This document shows, one piece after another, positions 4,669 through 11,107 of a stretch of DNA of 64,000 bases (its first letter is position 1; each line of letters starts with the position of its first letter). Where the stretch lies: assembly GCF_016903815.1 (NCBI RefSeq), contig NZ_CP069973.1; one strand, 5' to 3'. A program made the position numbers and the translations under genes. The notes under the pieces were generated by a model, which saw only the letters and a list, made by a program, of their open reading frames with translations, did no database searches and had not been told where the DNA came from. Origin of the DNA: Escherichia coli. GTDB taxonomy: Bacteria; Pseudomonadota; Gammaproteobacteria; Enterobacterales; Enterobacteriaceae.

Positions 4669-5445
4669 ATGGAAATCACTGAACCACGCCGTTTGTATCA
4701 ACAACTTGCCGCTGATCTGAAAGAGCGCATCGAACAGGGCGTCTATCTGGTGGGTGATAAACTGCCTGCTGAGCGCTTTATTGCCGATGAAAAAAACGTC
4801 AGCCGCACCGTGGTTCGTGAAGCCATCATCATGCTGGAAGTTGAAGGCTATGTCGAAGTGCGTAAAGGTTCAGGTATTCATGTGGTTTCCAACCAGCCGC
4901 GCCATCAGCAGGCGGCTGACAATAATATGGAATTCGCCAATTACGGTCCGTTTGAGTTGCTTCAGGCTCGCCAGCTCATCGAAAGTAATATTGCCGAATT
5001 CGCGGCAACTCAGGTAACGAAACAGGACATCATGAAACTGATGGCCATCCAGGAGCAGGCGCGCGGCGAACAATGCTTCCGTGATTCCGAGTGGGATTTG
5101 CAGTTCCACATTCAGGTAGCCCTGGCGACGCAGAACTCCGCCCTGGCGGCTATCGTTGAAAAAATGTGGACCCAGCGTAGTCATAACCCGTACTGGAAAA
5201 AACTGCACGAACACATTGATGCCCGTACCGTCGATAACTGGTGTGATGACCACGATCAAATCCTCAAGGCGCTGATTCGCAAAGATCCTCATGCTGCTAA
5301 GCTGGCAATGTGGCAGCATCTGGAAAACACCAAAATCATGTTATTTAACGAAACCAGCGACGATTTCGAGTTCAATGCCGACCGCTATCTGTTCGCAGAA
5401 AACCCGGTTGTGCATCTCGATACGGCCACCAGCGGCAGCAAATGA
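4669..5445 (+). CDS. exuR: GntR-family repressor of hexuronate regulon
   Basis: ORF 4654..5445; [24 protein letters not shown]... (258 aa) recognised as ExuR. Confidence 0.9.
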
Positions 5446-5457
5446 AATTTCCATCCG

Positions 5458-5486
5458 ACAGGCGCTGCAATGCGCCTGTTTGCTTC
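5458..5486 (+). terminator. putative intrinsic terminator downstream of exuR
   Basis: Inverted repeat acaggcgc/gcgcctgt followed by T-rich tract directly after exuR stop. Confidence 0.45.
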
Positions 5487-5789
5487 GTCGGTAAGCGAAA
5501 AGTATAAAGTGTCAGCCTGTGTAAATCCTCTCGCCACCCTCCCCTGCAATCAGCAAAATCAGACTCTACGGACATGTAATTTTGATAACGAACAACGTTG
5601 ACCTTTGTTACAATTAGATTCAATTTGAATTTATGCTTTTGAATGCTTTCTTATCTCACGATTTAACAGGGAATAGTTCAGGCTGTGTTGATGTATCAAA
5701 CCCGCAAAACATACCAAAACAGCAATAACATTGCGGTAGTGCATCTTTTAAAACCAGCGTGGCGTTAACCGATTCACCAGGAATAATGA

Positions 5790-6452
5790 ATGGAACTTTT
5801 GACCCAATTGCTGCAAGCCCTGTGGGCGCAGGATTTTGAAACCCTGGCCAATCCGTCGATGATTGGCATGTTGTATTTTGTCTTGTTTGTAATTTTGTTC
5901 CTTGAAAACGGCTTGCTTCCGGCGGCCTTTTTACCGGGCGACAGTTTACTGGTGTTGGTCGGCGTATTGATTGCGAAAGGCGCGATGGGCTATCCGCAAA
6001 CGATTCTGCTGCTGACCGTTGCCGCCAGCCTCGGTTGCTGGGTCAGCTATATTCAGGGGCGATGGCTGGGCAATACCCGCACAGTACAAAACTGGCTATC
6101 TCATTTACCCGCGCATTATCATCAACGCGCACACCATCTTTTTCATAAACACGGTTTATCGGCGCTGTTAATTGGTCGCTTTATTGCATTTGTCAGAACA
6201 CTACTGCCGACGATTGCCGGATTATCAGGGCTGAATAACGCGCGCTTTCAGTTCTTCAACTGGATGAGCGGTCTGCTGTGGGTATTGATCCTGACAACTC
6301 TGGGTTACATGCTCGGCAAAACGCCGGTATTTTTAAAGTACGAGGACCAGCTGATGTCATGCCTGATGCTGCTCCCGGTGGTGCTGCTGGTGTTTGGCCT
6401 GGCAGGTTCTCTGGTCGTGTTATGGAAAAAGAAATATGGAAATCGGGGGTAA
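5790..6452 (+). CDS. yqjA: DedA-family inner membrane protein
   Basis: 220-aa hydrophobic [25 protein letters not shown]... recognised as YqjA. Confidence 0.9.
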
Positions 6453-6455
6453 GGG

Positions 6456-6839
6456 ATGCAAATACCTCGCATGTCGCTTCGCCAGCTAGCCTGGTCCGGC
6501 GCTGTTTTACTTCTGGTCGGCACACTGTTGCTGGCCTGGTCCGCGGTTCGCCAGCAAGAGTCTACGCTGGCGATTCGTGCCGTTCATCAAGGGACAACGA
6601 TGCCAGACGGTTTTTCAATCTGGCATCACCTTGACGCTCACGGCATTCCTTTCAAAAGTATCACCCCCAAAAATGACACTCTGTTAATTACCTTTGACTC
6701 CAGCGACCAGAGTGCCGCCGCAAAAGCGGTCCTCGACAGAACATTGCCCCATGGCTACATCATCGCGCAGCAGGACAATAATAGTCAGGCTATGCAGTGG
6801 CTGACCCGGTTGCGGGATAACTCTCATCGCTTCGGATAA
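6456..6839 (+). CDS. mzrA: modulator of EnvZ/OmpR two-component system
   Basis: 127-aa [25 protein letters not shown]... recognised as MzrA (YqjB); 3-bp spacing to yqjA. Confidence 0.88.
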
Positions 6840-6985
6840 CTTCCTGTTATCCGAAACATATCACTGACTTTGGTGATTTCACCGTAACTGTCTATGATTA
6901 ATGAGGCGGTGGTTAACACTACCGCTTCGTTGTCTGGACAATCGTTCCTTTGTAATAGGTCCGAATCACAATGGAAGGTTCAAGA

Positions 6986-7354
6986 ATGAAATACCGCATC
7001 GCTTTAGCTGTTTCTCTCTTTGCTCTTAGTGCCGGTAGTTATGCCACTACCCTGTGTCAGGAAAAGGAGCAAAATATCCTTAAGGAGATCAGCTATGCCG
7101 AAAAACACCAAAACCAGAATCGTATTGACGGTCTGAATAAAGCCCTGAGTGAAGTCCGGGCCAACTGTTCAGATAGCCAGCTGCGTGCCGATCATCAGAA
7201 GAAAATCGCAAAGCAGAAAGATGAGGTGGCGGAACGCCAGCAAGATTTAACCGAGGCGAAGCAAAAAGGCGATGCCGATAAGATTGCCAAACGCGAACGG
7301 AAACTGGCAGAAGCGCAGGAAGAGCTGAAAAAGCTGGAAGCGCGCGACTACTAA
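6986..7354 (+). CDS. yqjC: DUF1090 periplasmic coiled-coil protein
   Basis: ORF 6971..7354; signal peptide MKYRIALAVSLFALSAGSYA then charged coiled-coil; matches YqjC (122 aa). Confidence 0.85.
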   Translation: MKYRIALAVSLFALSAGSYATTLCQEKEQNILKEISYAEKHQNQNRIDGLNKALSEVRANCSDSQLRADHQKKIAKQKDEVAERQQDLTEAKQKGDADKIAKRERKLAEAQEELKKLEARDY

Positions 7355-7391
7355 CTCACAATAGTCACTACTTACTCACCTGGAGAAAACT

Positions 7392-7697
7392 ATGTCGAAA
7401 GAACACACTACGGAACATCTGCGTGCTGAGTTGAAATCCCTTTCCGATACGCTGGAAGAGGTGCTTAGCTCATCTGGCGAGAAGTCGAAAGAAGAGTTGA
7501 GTAAGATTCGTAGCAAAGCGGAGCAGGCACTGAAACAGAGCCGTTATCGCCTGGGTGAAACCGGTGATGCCATCGCCAAACAAACCCGTGTCGCGGCGGC
7601 GCGTGCCGATGAGTATGTGCGTGAAAATCCATGGACGGGCGTGGGCATTGGCGCTGCAATCGGTGTAGTGCTCGGCGTTCTGCTATCGCGTCGTTAA
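7392..7697 (+). CDS. yqjD: membrane-anchored ribosome-binding protein (ElaB/YgaM/YqjD family)
   Basis: 101-aa ORF MSKEHTTEHLRAELKSLSDTLEEV... with C-terminal TM helix; recognised as YqjD. Confidence 0.9.
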   Translation: MSKEHTTEHLRAELKSLSDTLEEVLSSSGEKSKEELSKIRSKAEQALKQSRYRLGETGDAIAKQTRVAAARADEYVRENPWTGVGIGAAIGVVLGVLLSRR

Positions 7698-7699
7698 TT

Positions 7700-8104
7700 A
7701 TGGCGGACACTCATCACGCGCAAGGGCCCGGTAAAAGCGTTCTGGGCATCGGGCAGCGAATTGTTTCCATCATGGTTGAAATGGTGGAAACACGTCTGCG
7801 GCTGGCGGTGGTGGAGCTGGAAGAGGAAAAAGCGAATCTCTTTCAACTTTTACTGATGCTGGGCCTGACGATGCTTTTCGCTGCATTTGGTCTTATGAGC
7901 CTGATGGTGCTGATTATTTGGGCGGTTGATCCGCAATATCGCCTGAATGCGATGATTGCCACCACCGTGGTGTTGCTGCTACTGGCACTGATTGGCGGTA
8001 TCTGGACGTTACGTAAATCGCGTAAATCCACCTTGCTGCGCCATACACGCCATGAGCTGGCAAACGATCGGCAGCTGCTCGAGGAGGAGTCCCGTGAGCA
8101 GTAA
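7700..8104 (+). CDS. yqjE: inner membrane protein (DUF1469)
   Basis: ORF 7631..8104; MADTHHAQGPGKSVLGIGQRIV... (134 aa) from ATG at 7700, 2 nt after yqjD stop. Confidence 0.85.
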   Translation: MADTHHAQGPGKSVLGIGQRIVSIMVEMVETRLRLAVVELEEEKANLFQLLLMLGLTMLFAAFGLMSLMVLIIWAVDPQYRLNAMIATTVVLLLLALIGGIWTLRKSRKSTLLRHTRHELANDRQLLEEESREQ

Positions 8105-8393
8105 AGTCGAACGTGAACGACGTAAGGCGCAACTGCTTAGCCAGATCCAGCAACAACGGCTGGATCTTTCTGCCAGTCGTCGTGAATGGCTGGAGGCAAC
8201 AGGCGCTTACGATCGTCGCTGGAATATGCTGCTAAGTCTGCGCTCCTGGGCGCTGGTTGGCAGTAGCGTGATGGCGATCTGGACGATTCGCCATCCTAAT
8301 ATGCTGGTCCGCTGGGCCAGACGCGGTTTTGGCTTATGGAGCGCCTGGCGTCTGGTTAAAACGACCCTCAAGCAGCAACAGCTTCGCGGTTAA
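8094..8393 (+). CDS. yqjK: small membrane protein YqjK
   Basis: ORF 7992..8393; 99-aa product from GTG at 8094 (VSSKVERERRKAQLLSQIQQ...) overlapping yqjE end by 11 nt. Confidence 0.75.
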   Translation: MSSKVERERRKAQLLSQIQQQRLDLSASRREWLEATGAYDRRWNMLLSLRSWALVGSSVMAIWTIRHPNMLVRWARRGFGLWSAWRLVKTTLKQQQLRG

Positions 8394-8576
8394 TAACCTC
8401 TCTGGCCGGAGCCATTCCGGCCTTATCCCTCAAATTTTTTGAAGATTTTTGACAGTTTTCCTTGCTAACAATCATCATTCACCACGTTTATGATTCTCTC
8501 CATCGACAGCAACGACGCTAATACCGCGCCCTTGCACAAAAAAACAATCAGCAGCCTGAGTGGCGCAGTGGAGAGT

Positions 8577-8972
8577 ATGATGAAAAAATTAGAAGATGTT
8601 GGTGTACTGGTAGCGCGCATTTTAATGCCGATTCTGTTTATTACCGCAGGCTGGGGAAAAATTACTGGCTACGCGGGTACCCAACAATATATGGAAGCGA
8701 TGGGTGTCCCAGGCTTTATGCTGCCGCTGGTGATTCTGCTTGAGTTTGGTGGTGGTCTGGCAATCCTGTTCGGTTTCCTGACTCGCACCACAGCCCTGTT
8801 TACTGCGGGCTTTACGCTGCTGACGGCATTTTTATTTCACAGCAACTTTGCTGAAGGCGTCAACTCGCTGATGTTCATGAAAAACCTGACAATTTCTGGC
8901 GGATTCCTGCTGCTGGCAATTACCGGTCCGGGCGCGTATAGCATCGACCGCCTGCTGAATAAAAAGTGGTAA
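8577..8972 (+). CDS. yqjF: DoxX-family inner membrane protein
   Basis: ORF 8490..8972; MMKKLEDVGVLVARILMPILF... recognised as YqjF; start may be 8580. Confidence 0.85.
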   Translation: MMKKLEDVGVLVARILMPILFITAGWGKITGYAGTQQYMEAMGVPGFMLPLVILLEFGGGLAILFGFLTRTTALFTAGFTLLTAFLFHSNFAEGVNSLMFMKNLTISGGFLLLAITGPGAYSIDRLLNKKW

Positions 8973-9041
8973 GCACGCGCTATACTTAACGATAAAAAAC
9001 GAGGAGGAAGCTCCTCGTTTTTGCTATTGGAGGAGAGAAAT

Positions 9042-10028
9042 ATGGGTCAACTGATTGACGGCGTCTGGCATGACACCTGGTACGATACCAAATCTACCGG
9101 CGGTAAATTTCAACGTTCAGCTTCCGCATTTCGTAACTGGCTCACTGCCGATGGCGCGCCAGGCCCCACTGGCACAGGCGGTTTTATCGCAGAGAAAGAT
9201 CGTTATCATCTCTATGTTTCACTCGCCTGCCCGTGGGCGCACCGCACGCTGATCATGCGTAAACTCAAAGGACTGGAACCGTTTATTTCCGTTTCCGTAG
9301 TGAACCCGCTGATGCTGGAAAACGGCTGGACCTTTGATGACAGTTTTCCGGGTGCAACCGGCGATACACTCTATCAACATGAATTTCTGTATCAGCTTTA
9401 TCTCCACGCCGATCCACACTACAGCGGACGAGTTACTGTTCCCGTACTCTGGGACAAAAAGAACCACACCATCGTCAGCAACGAATCAGCGGAAATCATC
9501 CGCATGTTCAATACCGCGTTTGATGCGCTGGGCGCGAAAGCGGGTGATTACTACCCACCAGCCCTGCAAACGAAAATTGACGAACTTAACGGCTGGATTT
9601 ATGACACCGTTAACAATGGCGTGTATAAAGCCGGTTTTGCCACCAGCCAGCAAGCCTACGACGAGGCGGTAGTGAAAGTGTTTGAATCGCTGGCGCGACT
9701 GGAGCAGATTTTAGGCCAGCATCGTTACCTGACCGGCAACCAGCTAACCGAAGCCGATATTCGCCTGTGGACCACGCTGGTGCGTTTTGATCCGGTGTAT
9801 GTCACCCACTTCAAGTGTGATAAGCACCGCATCAGCGATTACCTGAATCTGTATGGCTTCCTGCGCGATATCTACCAGATGCCGGGGATCGCCGAAACAG
9901 TCAATTTCGATCACATCCGTAATCACTACTTCCGCAGCCATAAGACCATCAACCCTACGGGGATTATTTCAATTGGTCCGTGGCAGGATCTCGATGAACC
10001 GCATGGTCGAGATGTTCGCTTCGGTTAA
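9042..10028 (+). CDS. yqjG: glutathionyl-hydroquinone reductase (Xi-class GST)
   Basis: ORF 9021..10028; MGQLIDGVWHDTWYDTKSTGG... (328 aa), CPWAHR motif; recognised as YqjG. Confidence 0.9.
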   Translation: MGQLIDGVWHDTWYDTKSTGGKFQRSASAFRNWLTADGAPGPTGTGGFIAEKDRYHLYVSLACPWAHRTLIMRKLKGLEPFISVSVVNPLMLENGWTFDDSFPGATGDTLYQHEFLYQLYLHADPHYSGRVTVPVLWDKKNHTIVSNESAEIIRMFNTAFDALGAKAGDYYPPALQTKIDELNGWIYDTVNNGVYKAGFATSQQAYDEAVVKVFESLARLEQILGQHRYLTGNQLTEADIRLWTTLVRFDPVYVTHFKCDKHRISDYLNLYGFLRDIYQMPGIAETVNFDHIRNHYFRSHKTINPTGIISIGPWQDLDEPHGRDVRFG

Positions 10029-10033
10029 AAAAA

Positions 10034-10051
10034 GGCACCTTACGAGGTGCC
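10034..10051 (+). terminator. putative terminator hairpin after yqjG
   Basis: ggcacct-tacg-aggtgcc perfect hairpin preceded by A-run, just after yqjG stop; T-run weak on plus strand. Confidence 0.4.
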
Positions 10052-10079
10052 TCTGATAATTAGCTAAGTGCATGTTGTT

Positions 10080-10185
10080 CATGTCGGATGCGGCGTGAAC
10101 GCCTTATTAAACCCACAAAACGTTTATATTCAATATGTTACAATGACCGCGTAGGCCAGATAAGCGTAGCGCATCTGGCGATTTT
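10080..10185. repeat. REP-like palindromic elements (degenerate)
   Basis: tgtcggatgcggcgtgaacgcctta and gtaggccagataagcgtagcgcatctggcg resemble REP consensus. Confidence 0.5.
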
Positions 10186-10346
10186 GCGCTTGCCCTTATC
10201 CTTCACAGCGCCTTATTAATTCATCGCGATAATATTTACTGCCATTTCATTCACGTCTATTCTTAATTTGCTGCTTTAAAAACAAGTGATTGAGCAAAAT
10301 TGAGGCAAAAATGGACTGGTATCTGAAAGTACTAAAAAATTATGTC

Positions 10347-10354
10347 GGTTTCCG
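10347..10354. repeat. IS1 target-site duplication, left copy (ggtttccg)
   Basis: Identical 8-mer flanks both IS1 ends; a 9th base is ambiguous. Confidence 0.8.
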
Positions 10355-10409
10355 GGTAATGCTGCCAACTTACTGATTTAGTGTATGATGGTGATTTTAA
10401 GGTGCTTGC

Positions 10410-10685
10410 GTGGCTTCCATTTCCATCAGATGTCCTTCCTGCTCCGCTACTGAAGGCGTGGTGCGTAACGGCAAAAGCACTGCCGGACATCAGCGCTATC
10501 TCTGCTCTCATTGCCGTAAAACATGGCAACTACAGTTCACTTACACCGCCTCTCAGCCCGGTACGCACCAGAAAATCATTGATATGGCCATGAATGGCGT
10601 CGGATGTCGCGCCAGTGCACGCATTATGGGCGTTGGCCTCAACACGGTTTTACGTCACTTAAAAAACTCAGGCCGCAGTCGGTAA
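10410..10685 (+). CDS. insA: IS1 InsA (DNA-binding repressor)
   Basis: 91-aa [40 protein letters not shown]... zinc-finger protein of IS1. Confidence 0.93.
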
Positions 10686-11107
10686 CCTCGCGCATACAAC
10701 CGGGCAGTGATGTGATTGTCTGCGCTGAAATGGACGAACAGTGGGGCTACGTCGGTGCTAAATCACGTCAGCGCTGGCTGTTTTACGCGTATGACAGGAT
10801 ACGGAGGACGGTTGTGGCGCACGTCTTCGGTGAACGCACTCTGGCCACACTGGAGCGTCTTCTGAGCCTGCTGTCGGCCTTTGAGGTCGTGGTATGGATG
10901 ACGGATGGCTGGCCGCTGTATGAATCACGCCTGAAGGGAAAGCTGCACGTTATCAGCAAGCGTTACACTCAGCGCATTGAGCGACATAATCTGAATCTGA
11001 GACAACATCTGGCAAGGCTGGGACGGAAGTCACTGTCGTTCTCAAAATCGGTGGAGCTGCATGACAAGGTCATCGGGCATTATCTGAACATAAAACACTA
11101 TCAGTAA
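10604..11107 (+). CDS. insB: IS1 InsB frame (transposase catalytic part, expressed as InsAB' fusion)
   Basis: 167-aa ORF in -1 frame relative to insA; ...[32 protein letters not shown]... Confidence 0.9.
10652..10658 (+). other. IS1 programmed -1 ribosomal frameshift motif (A6C)
   Basis: ttAAAAAACtc near the 3' end of insA where the insB frame overlaps; known site producing InsAB' transposase. Confidence 0.8.

Follow-up and report, generated by a model that had tools for sequence, protein, structure and literature searches.

Do four short genes lying end to end on the Escherichia coli chromosome, yqjC, yqjD, yqjE and yqjK, form one functional module, and if so, which of their products act together? 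The genes occupy positions 6986 to 8393 of the 64,000-nucleotide (nt) stretch of contig NZ_CP069973.1 that was analysed here (the window), all on the + strand. A reading of the bare DNA letters (the original prediction) had singled them out as a tightly packed, uncharacterised module of four small-protein genes. Its coordinates and its spacings of 37, 2 and -11 nt were borne out by direct reading of the DNA and by RefSeq, where the annotation of an identical E. coli chromosome carries the same four coding sequences. The region is the E. coli yqjCDEK stress operon, which has already been published; since the operon, its sigma-S promoters and CsrA sites, the DUF883-yqjE-yqjK synteny and the activity of YqjD are all in the literature, the description as an uncharacterised module goes too far. 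By contrast, the view that the combination is functionally unexplained agrees with the literature, in which yqjC, yqjE and yqjK are listed in a dense cluster of uncharacterised genes (PMC11551758). The explanation that we consider best for the whole is a known operon with a translationally coupled yqjD-yqjE-yqjK core whose products act jointly at the inner membrane, and we put the probability of this reading at roughly 0.55.

The conserved yqjD-yqjE-yqjK core

The surroundings of yqjE were surveyed in a genome collection (one genome per species) and a metagenome collection. Both were scanned with a degenerate DNA pattern for the YqjE motif T-R-x-x-L-x3-E-x-E-[EQ]-E, open reading frames (ORFs) were called, and iterative profiles were built for the four proteins; a search for homologous proteins gave only close enteric relatives. 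Each scan gave at least 120 loci, and all counts given here are among the matches listed. Use of this pattern skews the sample to YqjE proteins with the motif, and Pseudomonas was missed. Six of the genome matches were chance hits, about the number expected. The survey comprised 228 yqjE loci, 115 from genomes (the E. coli reference counted) and 113 from metagenomes, and covered Enterobacterales, Halomonadaceae, many Betaproteobacteria and a few other metagenome-assembled genomes (MAGs).

The genes yqjD, yqjE and yqjK were found in the same order and on the same strand in 100/115 genome loci, and in 100 of the 102 that were not cut by the edge of the locus. yqjK was missing from eight genome loci, all of them edge-cut, and yqjD from seven, of which five were edge-cut. 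In the metagenome set the three genes were found together in 89 of 113 yqjE loci, the rest being mostly cut at contig ends. Homologues of YqjK encoded directly 3' of yqjE numbered 108 in the genome set and 101 in the metagenome set. Even loci with only 27-33% YqjE identity keep a DUF883 gene, a yqjE gene 2-6 nt further on and an overlapping small ORF, and this third ORF carries the YqjK N-terminal helix motif even where Pfam does not recognise it. A true absence of yqjD was seen only in two strains of the reduced symbiont Candidatus Pantoea edessiphila. There, yqjE and yqjK are intact, overlapping and placed directly after yqjA (L012:946-1652 and L043:5960-6657, reoriented so that yqjE is on the + strand), and no detectable remnant of yqjD or yqjC was found at either locus. 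The ratio of non-synonymous to synonymous substitution rates (dN/dS) between the two strains was 0.35 for yqjE and 0.61 for yqjK. No neighbour besides these three genes was universal in the surveyed loci. We conclude that yqjD-yqjE-yqjK is an ancient unit of fixed order across Gamma- and Betaproteobacteria.

The position of yqjC is different. It was present in 39/115 genome loci, all of them from part of the Enterobacterales or from unclassified Proteobacteria MAGs, and wherever it was found it lay directly upstream of yqjD. Loci of Morganellaceae, Edwardsiella, Halomonadaceae and betaproteobacteria, all of which keep yqjD-yqjE-yqjK, do not contain it. Between yqjC and yqjD the gap ranges over 25-187 nt, and there are two loci whose longest yqjD ORF extends 4 nt into yqjC. 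Because yqjC is restricted in this way, its distance to yqjD is variable and no other neighbour is universal, the unit is an ancient three-gene core with a later, lineage-specific addition. The original prediction had framed the locus as a four-gene module and proposed a synteny check across species; that check showed yqjD-yqjE-yqjK to be nearly invariant, while yqjC is confined to part of the Enterobacterales. As yqjC also lies upstream of the internal yqjDEK promoter, the four-gene framing had to be given up.

Within the core, the junctions between the genes are conserved as well. The yqjE start lies -1 to +15 nt from the yqjD stop in 96/108 genome loci and -8 to +15 nt from it in 81/96 metagenome loci (177/204 combined), and yqjK overlaps the yqjE stop in 93/107 genome and 86/100 metagenome loci (179/207 combined), most commonly by 4 nt (ATGA or GTGA); these counts are somewhat inflated by a start-picking rule that favours starts near the upstream stop. 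The geometry of both junctions recurs in about 200 independent loci of Gamma- and Betaproteobacteria, and the tight packing is not a matter of chance. The three genes differ in their ribosome binding sites. A Shine-Dalgarno (SD)-like core, defined as at least 4 nt located 3-12 nt upstream of the start, precedes yqjD in 136/183 loci (74%) and yqjK in 147/206 (71%), and yqjE in 19/204 (9%). Random in-gene positions gave 11%, which places yqjE at chance level.

These sequence features support re-initiation-type coupling from yqjD to yqjE, and coupling from yqjE to yqjK. Most translation of yqjE would be carried out by ribosomes coming straight from termination at the yqjD stop, and YqjE synthesis appears to depend on yqjD translation, since yqjD lies immediately upstream and yqjE has no SD of its own. 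Initiation at yqjK would in turn be tied to ribosomes finishing yqjE. Because the translation of yqjE and yqjK would be coupled in this way, the three proteins may be made together, in a fixed ratio and at the same spot on the membrane.

The original prediction had placed the start of yqjK at a GTG inside the 3' end of yqjE and had derived translational coupling from the overlap. The start was borne out, and the comparative evidence supports the coupling. The GTG at 8094, preceded by the SD GAGGAGGAG, is also the start given by RefSeq, and we accept it because of the junction geometry, this SD, the choice of GTG for yqjK in 82/206 loci, the ATG that E. albertii carries at the homologous -11 position, and the fact that the sole other in-frame start near the junction in E. 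coli is an ATG at -53 without an SD. For the coupling, it is the retention of the overlap in the surveyed loci and the E. albertii ATG at -11 that agree with the proposal. An RNA hairpin in which the GUG and part of the SD are base-paired is predicted at 8074-8102; it is weak (z -1.87, with 10/200 shuffles as good).

Features of the four proteins

YqjD of the window is the founding member of the YqjD/ElaB/YgaM DUF883 family (Yoshida 2012; Njenga et al. 2024, preprint 10.1101/2024.08.16.608256). Its N-terminal helices, which are cytoplasmic, match DUF883 (Pfam PF05957, E 4e-13, residues 8-60), and its glycine-zipper C-terminus matches DUF883_C (PF19029, E 1.4e-15, residues 72-101). The hydrophobic window spans residues 80-100 and the transmembrane helix approximately 80-101, with only 2-3 residues beyond it. 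Pro80 is conserved ahead of this helix, and V76, P80, G91 and G95 are invariant among 35 diverse orthologues. YqjD is held in the inner membrane by its tail anchor and forms a dimer that blocks the 50S exit tunnel; like ElaB and YgaM, it inhibits translation via the 50S tunnel exit, for which the N-terminus and dimerisation of the transmembrane helix are required (10.1101/2024.08.16.608256). In the same preprint, yqjE-like and yqjK-like genes are reported to be syntenic with DUF883 genes across the family, and YqjD is called its archetype. The Pfam domains and the published activity of this exact protein thus agree with its earlier description as a tail-anchored ribosome-binding protein. YqjD also gave a weak match to the PADLOC model LeoC (E 7.4e-5, most of the protein covered), which probably reflects a common composition of coiled coil and tail anchor; YqjE and YqjK had no PADLOC match.

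YqjE contains a conserved cytoplasmic helix with the motif T-R-L-x-L-x3-E-L-E-E-E-K, which is continuous with its first transmembrane helix. The membrane part is a two-helix hairpin of approximately residues 46-105 (hydrophobic windows 45-78 and 80-105) with a conserved R81 in the short loop, and it is followed by a C-terminal cytoplasmic helix containing L120 and D123. AlphaFold2 placed helices at residues 10-75, 78-109 and 114-132.

YqjK matches its Pfam family (PF13997, E 3.6e-25) over all 73 profile positions. The E. coli protein is very basic, with 19 lysine and arginine residues against 6 aspartate and glutamate residues. Its conserved N-terminal helix has the pattern R/K-K-x2-L-x3-I-x2-Q-R-x2-L. 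Next come about 15 hydrophobic residues, a turn with the sequence RHP and a C-terminal helix rich in Trp and Arg; R22 is invariant. In the AlphaFold2 model the helices span residues 2-66 and 68-98, with predicted local distance difference test (pLDDT) values of 87-94. Across the family the median net charge is +13, with +5 on the N-terminal and +8 on the C-terminal side of the uncharged run; this run has a median length of 15 residues, and only 18% of the members reach the hydropathy threshold usual for a membrane helix. In E. coli YqjK no 19-residue window reaches the threshold of 1.6. YqjK is therefore probably not a classical transmembrane protein but a cytoplasm-facing one with a peripheral or shallow anchor, and in composition it appears nearer to a protein that binds nucleic acids or lipid surfaces than to one that spans the membrane. 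The original prediction had counted two small membrane proteins in the operon, and for YqjK the literature makes the same assumption; this is right for the YqjE hairpin and probably wrong for YqjK, with its run of about 15 residues and positive charge on both sides.

YqjC matches DUF1090 (Pfam PF06476, E 8.6e-35). It begins with a signal peptide, residues 1-20, read by eye as MKYRIALAVSLFALSAGSYA|TT (...SYA|TT), and the remainder is charged and helical; the protein has two cysteines and is predicted to be periplasmic. The periplasmic exposure of YqjD, YqjE and YqjK amounts to a short YqjE loop, the three C-terminal residues of YqjD and little else. Contact between YqjC and these proteins is unlikely because they are barely exposed to the periplasm, and YqjC would probably remain outside any complex that they form. 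Sequence searches of the Protein Data Bank (PDB) gave no relatives of solved structure for any of the four proteins.

Do YqjD, YqjE and YqjK act together?

In the joint-action reading given at the outset, YqjE, with its membrane hairpin and acidic cytoplasmic helices, would pair with the strongly basic, cytoplasm-facing YqjK, which has a short hydrophobic anchor. At the cytoplasmic face of the inner membrane the pair would cooperate with YqjD and tune the growth-arresting silencing of ribosomes, with YqjK probably serving as a restraining or modulating subunit. The charges of the two partners are complementary, the conserved ELEEEK helix of YqjE being acidic and the YqjK family positive. Functional support comes from the operon PA3040-PA3041-PA3042 of Pseudomonas aeruginosa, which has the same layout: a DUF883 gene, a yqjE-like gene and a third small gene, less than 15 bp apart (PMC11302039). 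Stationary phase induces this operon. Its phenotypes depend on the operon as a whole, the overexpression phenotype on all three genes; when the third gene alone is deleted, growth slows and resistance to tobramycin goes up about 1000-fold (PMC11302039). In E. coli, overexpression of YqjD or YqjE alone arrests or slows growth (PMC10746276, PMC4738310), and overproduction of YqjE reduces growth and increases tolerance to antibiotics by a factor of more than 100 (PMC4738310). The P. aeruginosa third-gene deletion resembles overproduction of YqjD or YqjE in E. coli, which suggests, by analogy, a restraining effect of the third protein on the other two. The two operons are not equivalent in all respects. 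PA3040-PA3042 is under the control of AlgU (envelope stress) rather than under shown RpoS/CsrA control and has no yqjC; its individual genes are not toxic when overexpressed, unlike E. coli yqjD and yqjE; and PA3042, which has no recognised domain, is likened to YqjK by position.

A more specific form of joint action is that YqjD, YqjE and YqjK together make up a single conserved complex that silences ribosomes at the inner membrane, the ratio of its subunits being set by strict coupling. YqjE would be the scaffold, and YqjK, as basic as a ribosomal protein, would contact the ribosome a second time or restrain YqjD. If so, loss of YqjK would release YqjD and YqjE and lead to slow growth and aminoglycoside tolerance. 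We hold this proposal tentatively and at somewhat less than even odds. AlphaFold2 was run on glycine-serine-linker fusions of YqjD-YqjE-YqjK and YqjE-YqjK, with locus-paired alignments of 35 and 30 sequences, respectively. The models contained confident long helices (pLDDT 84-89 for YqjE and 87-94 for YqjK), and a Foldseek search of the YqjE-YqjK model against the PDB returned nothing below E = 1. Their global confidence was low, with predicted template-modelling scores of 0.45 for YqjD-YqjE-YqjK and 0.50 for YqjE-YqjK, and the YqjD transmembrane helix had a pLDDT of only 54-63. Mean-field direct-coupling analysis of 157 paired trios (effective number 106) gave noise, the top pairs being scattered and topologically meaningless; direct evidence for a complex did not come out of these analyses. 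Several other results weigh against joint action. Purified YqjD by itself blocks in vitro translation, and unrelated transmembrane helices can replace its own, so that YqjE and YqjK are dispensable for the core activity; moreover, the paralogues ElaB and YgaM stand alone, without yqjE or yqjK neighbours (10.1101/2024.08.16.608256). In the text of the supplement to that preprint, YqjE, YqjK and YqjC are not mentioned as crosslink partners. Candidatus Pantoea edessiphila keeps yqjE-yqjK although it has lost yqjD, and the restraining role of YqjK is drawn by analogy from the positional equivalence of PA3042 and YqjK.

Much of this would fit the main rival explanation, in which YqjE and YqjK form a self-contained unit at the cytoplasmic face with a stress job of its own, for example in membrane or envelope homeostasis, and are merely co-expressed with YqjD. 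The YqjE/YqjK overlap is the tightest and most conserved junction, the symbiont has retained the pair without yqjD at the dN/dS values given above, local AlphaFold2 confidence is high for YqjE and YqjK and not for the YqjD transmembrane helix, YqjD is self-sufficient in vitro, and ElaB and YgaM exist without such partners. The P. aeruginosa operon is part of the envelope-stress regulon of AlgU and has an effect on biofilm formation (PMC11302039), and the neighbours in Enterobacterales are the envelope genes yqjA (DedA family) and mzrA. Nevertheless, we regard a self-contained pair as unlikely: yqjD is immediately upstream in nearly all uncut genome loci, yqjE has no SD, all three genes are needed for the P. 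aeruginosa overexpression phenotype, and the symbiont might carry a DUF883 paralogue elsewhere in its genome. Extending the unit in the other direction, to a single envelope-spanning module of all four proteins with the periplasmic YqjC, would account for co-transcription from the yqjC promoter, for the control of both yqjC and yqjD by CsrA (PMC10746276) and for the position of yqjC directly upstream of yqjD in 39 Enterobacterales loci. We give this idea hardly any weight, as Morganellaceae, Edwardsiella, Halomonadaceae and betaproteobacteria keep the core without yqjC, the yqjC-yqjD gap is long and variable, yqjDEK has a separate promoter, YqjC and YqjD levels respond oppositely to conditions (PMC10746276), and the three core proteins are nearly unexposed to the periplasm.

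A different kind of explanation is invited by the annotation of YqjE, which matches the Pfam model Phage_holin_3_6 of phage holin superfamily III (PF07332, E 3.5e-21, profile positions 5-115 of 116) and is named "phage holin family protein" in RefSeq. YqjE might then be a holin-like pore former or membrane toxin and YqjK its antiholin, in a domesticated lysis or toxin-antitoxin-like cassette. Like the holins of this superfamily, YqjE is a small two-helix membrane hairpin, and the effects of its overexpression on growth and tolerance, as well as the slow growth of the P. aeruginosa isolate lacking the third gene, would be in line with such a role. Unlike phage holins, YqjE has no context of phage genomes, PHROG families or lysis cassettes. 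A tblastn search with YqjE against 50,697 phage records gave two matches, a Salmonella chromosome contig and an unannotated 1.9-kb fragment, both spurious; no PHROG family was matched by YqjD, YqjE or YqjK; and no endolysin or other lysis gene recurred near yqjE in about 200 loci. Toxicity on overproduction is general to most membrane proteins, and where a holin would form lethal membrane lesions, only a reduction of growth has been reported for overexpressed YqjE (PMC4738310). The locus is chromosomal and was found in 5422/5426 complete E. coli assemblies. On these grounds a lysis or toxin-antitoxin-like cassette is very improbable, and the "phage holin" label of YqjE is unsupported, the likeness to holins being one of shape only. 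A toxin-antitoxin module as the identity of the locus was rejected in view of the same chromosomal distribution in E. coli, the fixed three-gene order across proteobacterial orders and the lack of PADLOC matches for YqjE and YqjK.

Transcription, coordinates and published context

Two sigma-S promoters and four CsrA sites have been described in the yqjCDEK operon of E. coli K-12 (Pourciau et al., mBio 2023, PMC10746276). The locus is the same as the one in the window: gene order, start sites and CsrA GGAs match base for base, with no sequence difference from that description beyond strain polymorphism. The sigma-S start site of yqjC, 82 nt upstream of the yqjC start (PMC10746276), maps to an A in the window (6986-82 = 6904); the assignment of the -10 element is our own reading of the sequence. 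The yqjDEK start was reported between -105 and -101 of the yqjD start, at CCA and then AA (PMC10746276), and the window reads CCAAA at the corresponding positions, in agreement with it. The published sigma-S promoters were missed by a consensus promoter scan, whose performance was no better than chance. Changing AUGGA to GUGGA at -15 abolishes CsrA regulation (PMC10746276), and -15 of yqjC is the A of AUGGA at 6971 of the window. Further CsrA-protected GGAs were reported between -50 and -80, with one more over the SD (PMC10746276); the positions of BS2 to BS4 were read from the window against that description. CsrA represses the translation of yqjC and yqjD in exponential growth (PMC10746276). 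The coordinates of all these features are collected in Table 1.

Table 1. Features of the yqjCDEK region, in positions of the window (aa, amino acids)
Feature	Position	Strand	Details
yqjC	6986..7354	+	ATG 6986 to TAA 7354, 122 aa
yqjD	7392..7697	+	ATG 7392 to TAA 7697, 101 aa
yqjE	7700..8104	+	ATG 7700 to TAA 8104, 134 aa
yqjK	8094..8393	+	GTG 8094 to TAA 8393, 99 aa
sigma-S promoter of yqjC / full yqjCDEK transcript	6893..6904	+	-10 cTATGAT 6892-6898, start A 6904
internal sigma-S promoter of yqjDEK, inside yqjC coding region	7279..7291	+	start 7287-7291
CsrA site BS1 AUGGAAGG	6971..6978	+	overlaps yqjC ribosome binding site
CsrA sites BS2 GGA 7318-7320, BS3 GGA 7336-7338, BS4 GGA 7382-7384	7318..7384	+	BS4 within yqjD SD
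yqjD-yqjE junction TAA tt ATG	7695..7702	+	no SD upstream
yqjK initiation region inside yqjE 3' end	8074..8102	+	strong SD GAGGAGGAG 8081-8089, 4 nt before GTG 8094
GC-rich stem-loop GGCCGGA gccat TCCGGCC	8404..8422	+	10 nt past yqjK stop, T-run farther downstream

Positions 6700-8700 are 100% identical to several complete genomes. The operon is flanked by yqjA (DedA family) and mzrA upstream and by yqjF (DoxX family) and yqjG downstream. The stem-loop behind yqjK is possibly the operon terminator or a repeat element; its folding is modest (z -2.08), a consensus terminator scan did not call it, and repeat sites have been noted in this gene cluster (PMC11551758). Rfam models run over 5000-10500 gave no RNA family, save a sub-threshold match outside the operon to the Hfq-binding small RNA isrD, just past yqjG on the - strand (10028-10072; 24.2 bits against a gathering threshold of 37, E 0.15). 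Between yqjG and yhaH this strain carries an IS1 with a programmed-frameshift transposase at about 10410-11107. The longest ORF of yqjF spans 8490-8972, RefSeq places the start at 8580, and the 90 in-frame bases upstream of that start are probably untranslated. A small ORF of 27 aa, yqiM in RefSeq (5685-5768), lies directly upstream of yqjA.

Two further arrangements were observed around the core in other taxa. In eight betaproteobacterial loci (L010, L014, L035, L073, L083, L086, L090 and L119), an extra same-strand gene of about 105 aa directly follows yqjK, at distances from a 16-nt overlap to 46 nt after it (e.g. L014:2292-2606). The motif MPLLMKPRN..W..EDK is conserved in its product, which also carries WWLDRRR and a hydrophobic tail at the C-terminus; no Pfam family was matched, and the protein has the appearance of a further tail-anchored protein. 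Throughout the Halomonadaceae sample, yqjD is preceded on its own strand, at a distance of about 77-100 nt, by a gene for an outer-membrane phospholipase A1 (Pfam PLA1, 1.6e-94; L045:4908-5936 and 15 other loci).

An analogy for the role of YqjE and YqjK is offered by the Asp23/AmaP operon of Staphylococcus aureus, which is induced by stress. Its small membrane proteins are co-expressed with a protein abundant in stationary phase, which they hold at the cytoplasmic side of the membrane. The likeness is one of logic only, as a picture of how YqjE and YqjK might work: there is no sequence relationship, and Asp23 has no transmembrane helix, whereas YqjD has one. With respect to published work, the locus was already known, and our additions are mainly quantitative: the conservation of the junctions, the missing SD of yqjE and the taxonomic restriction of yqjC. 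The yqjE and yqjK junctions and the phylogenetic spread were not analysed by Pourciau et al. (PMC10746276), and junction geometry, the missing SD of yqjE and the atypical composition of YqjK are not reported in the Njenga preprint (10.1101/2024.08.16.608256). Two further additions are corrective and concern the holin label and the topology of YqjK; the basic picture in the literature is unchanged.

Hibernation of ribosomes at the membrane is relevant to survival in stationary phase and to antibiotic tolerance. YqjD is the only product of the operon with a known activity, while YqjE and YqjK belong to one of the densest clusters of uncharacterised genes in E. coli K-12. Our results narrow the experiments that are needed on these proteins, and they warn against inherited annotation.

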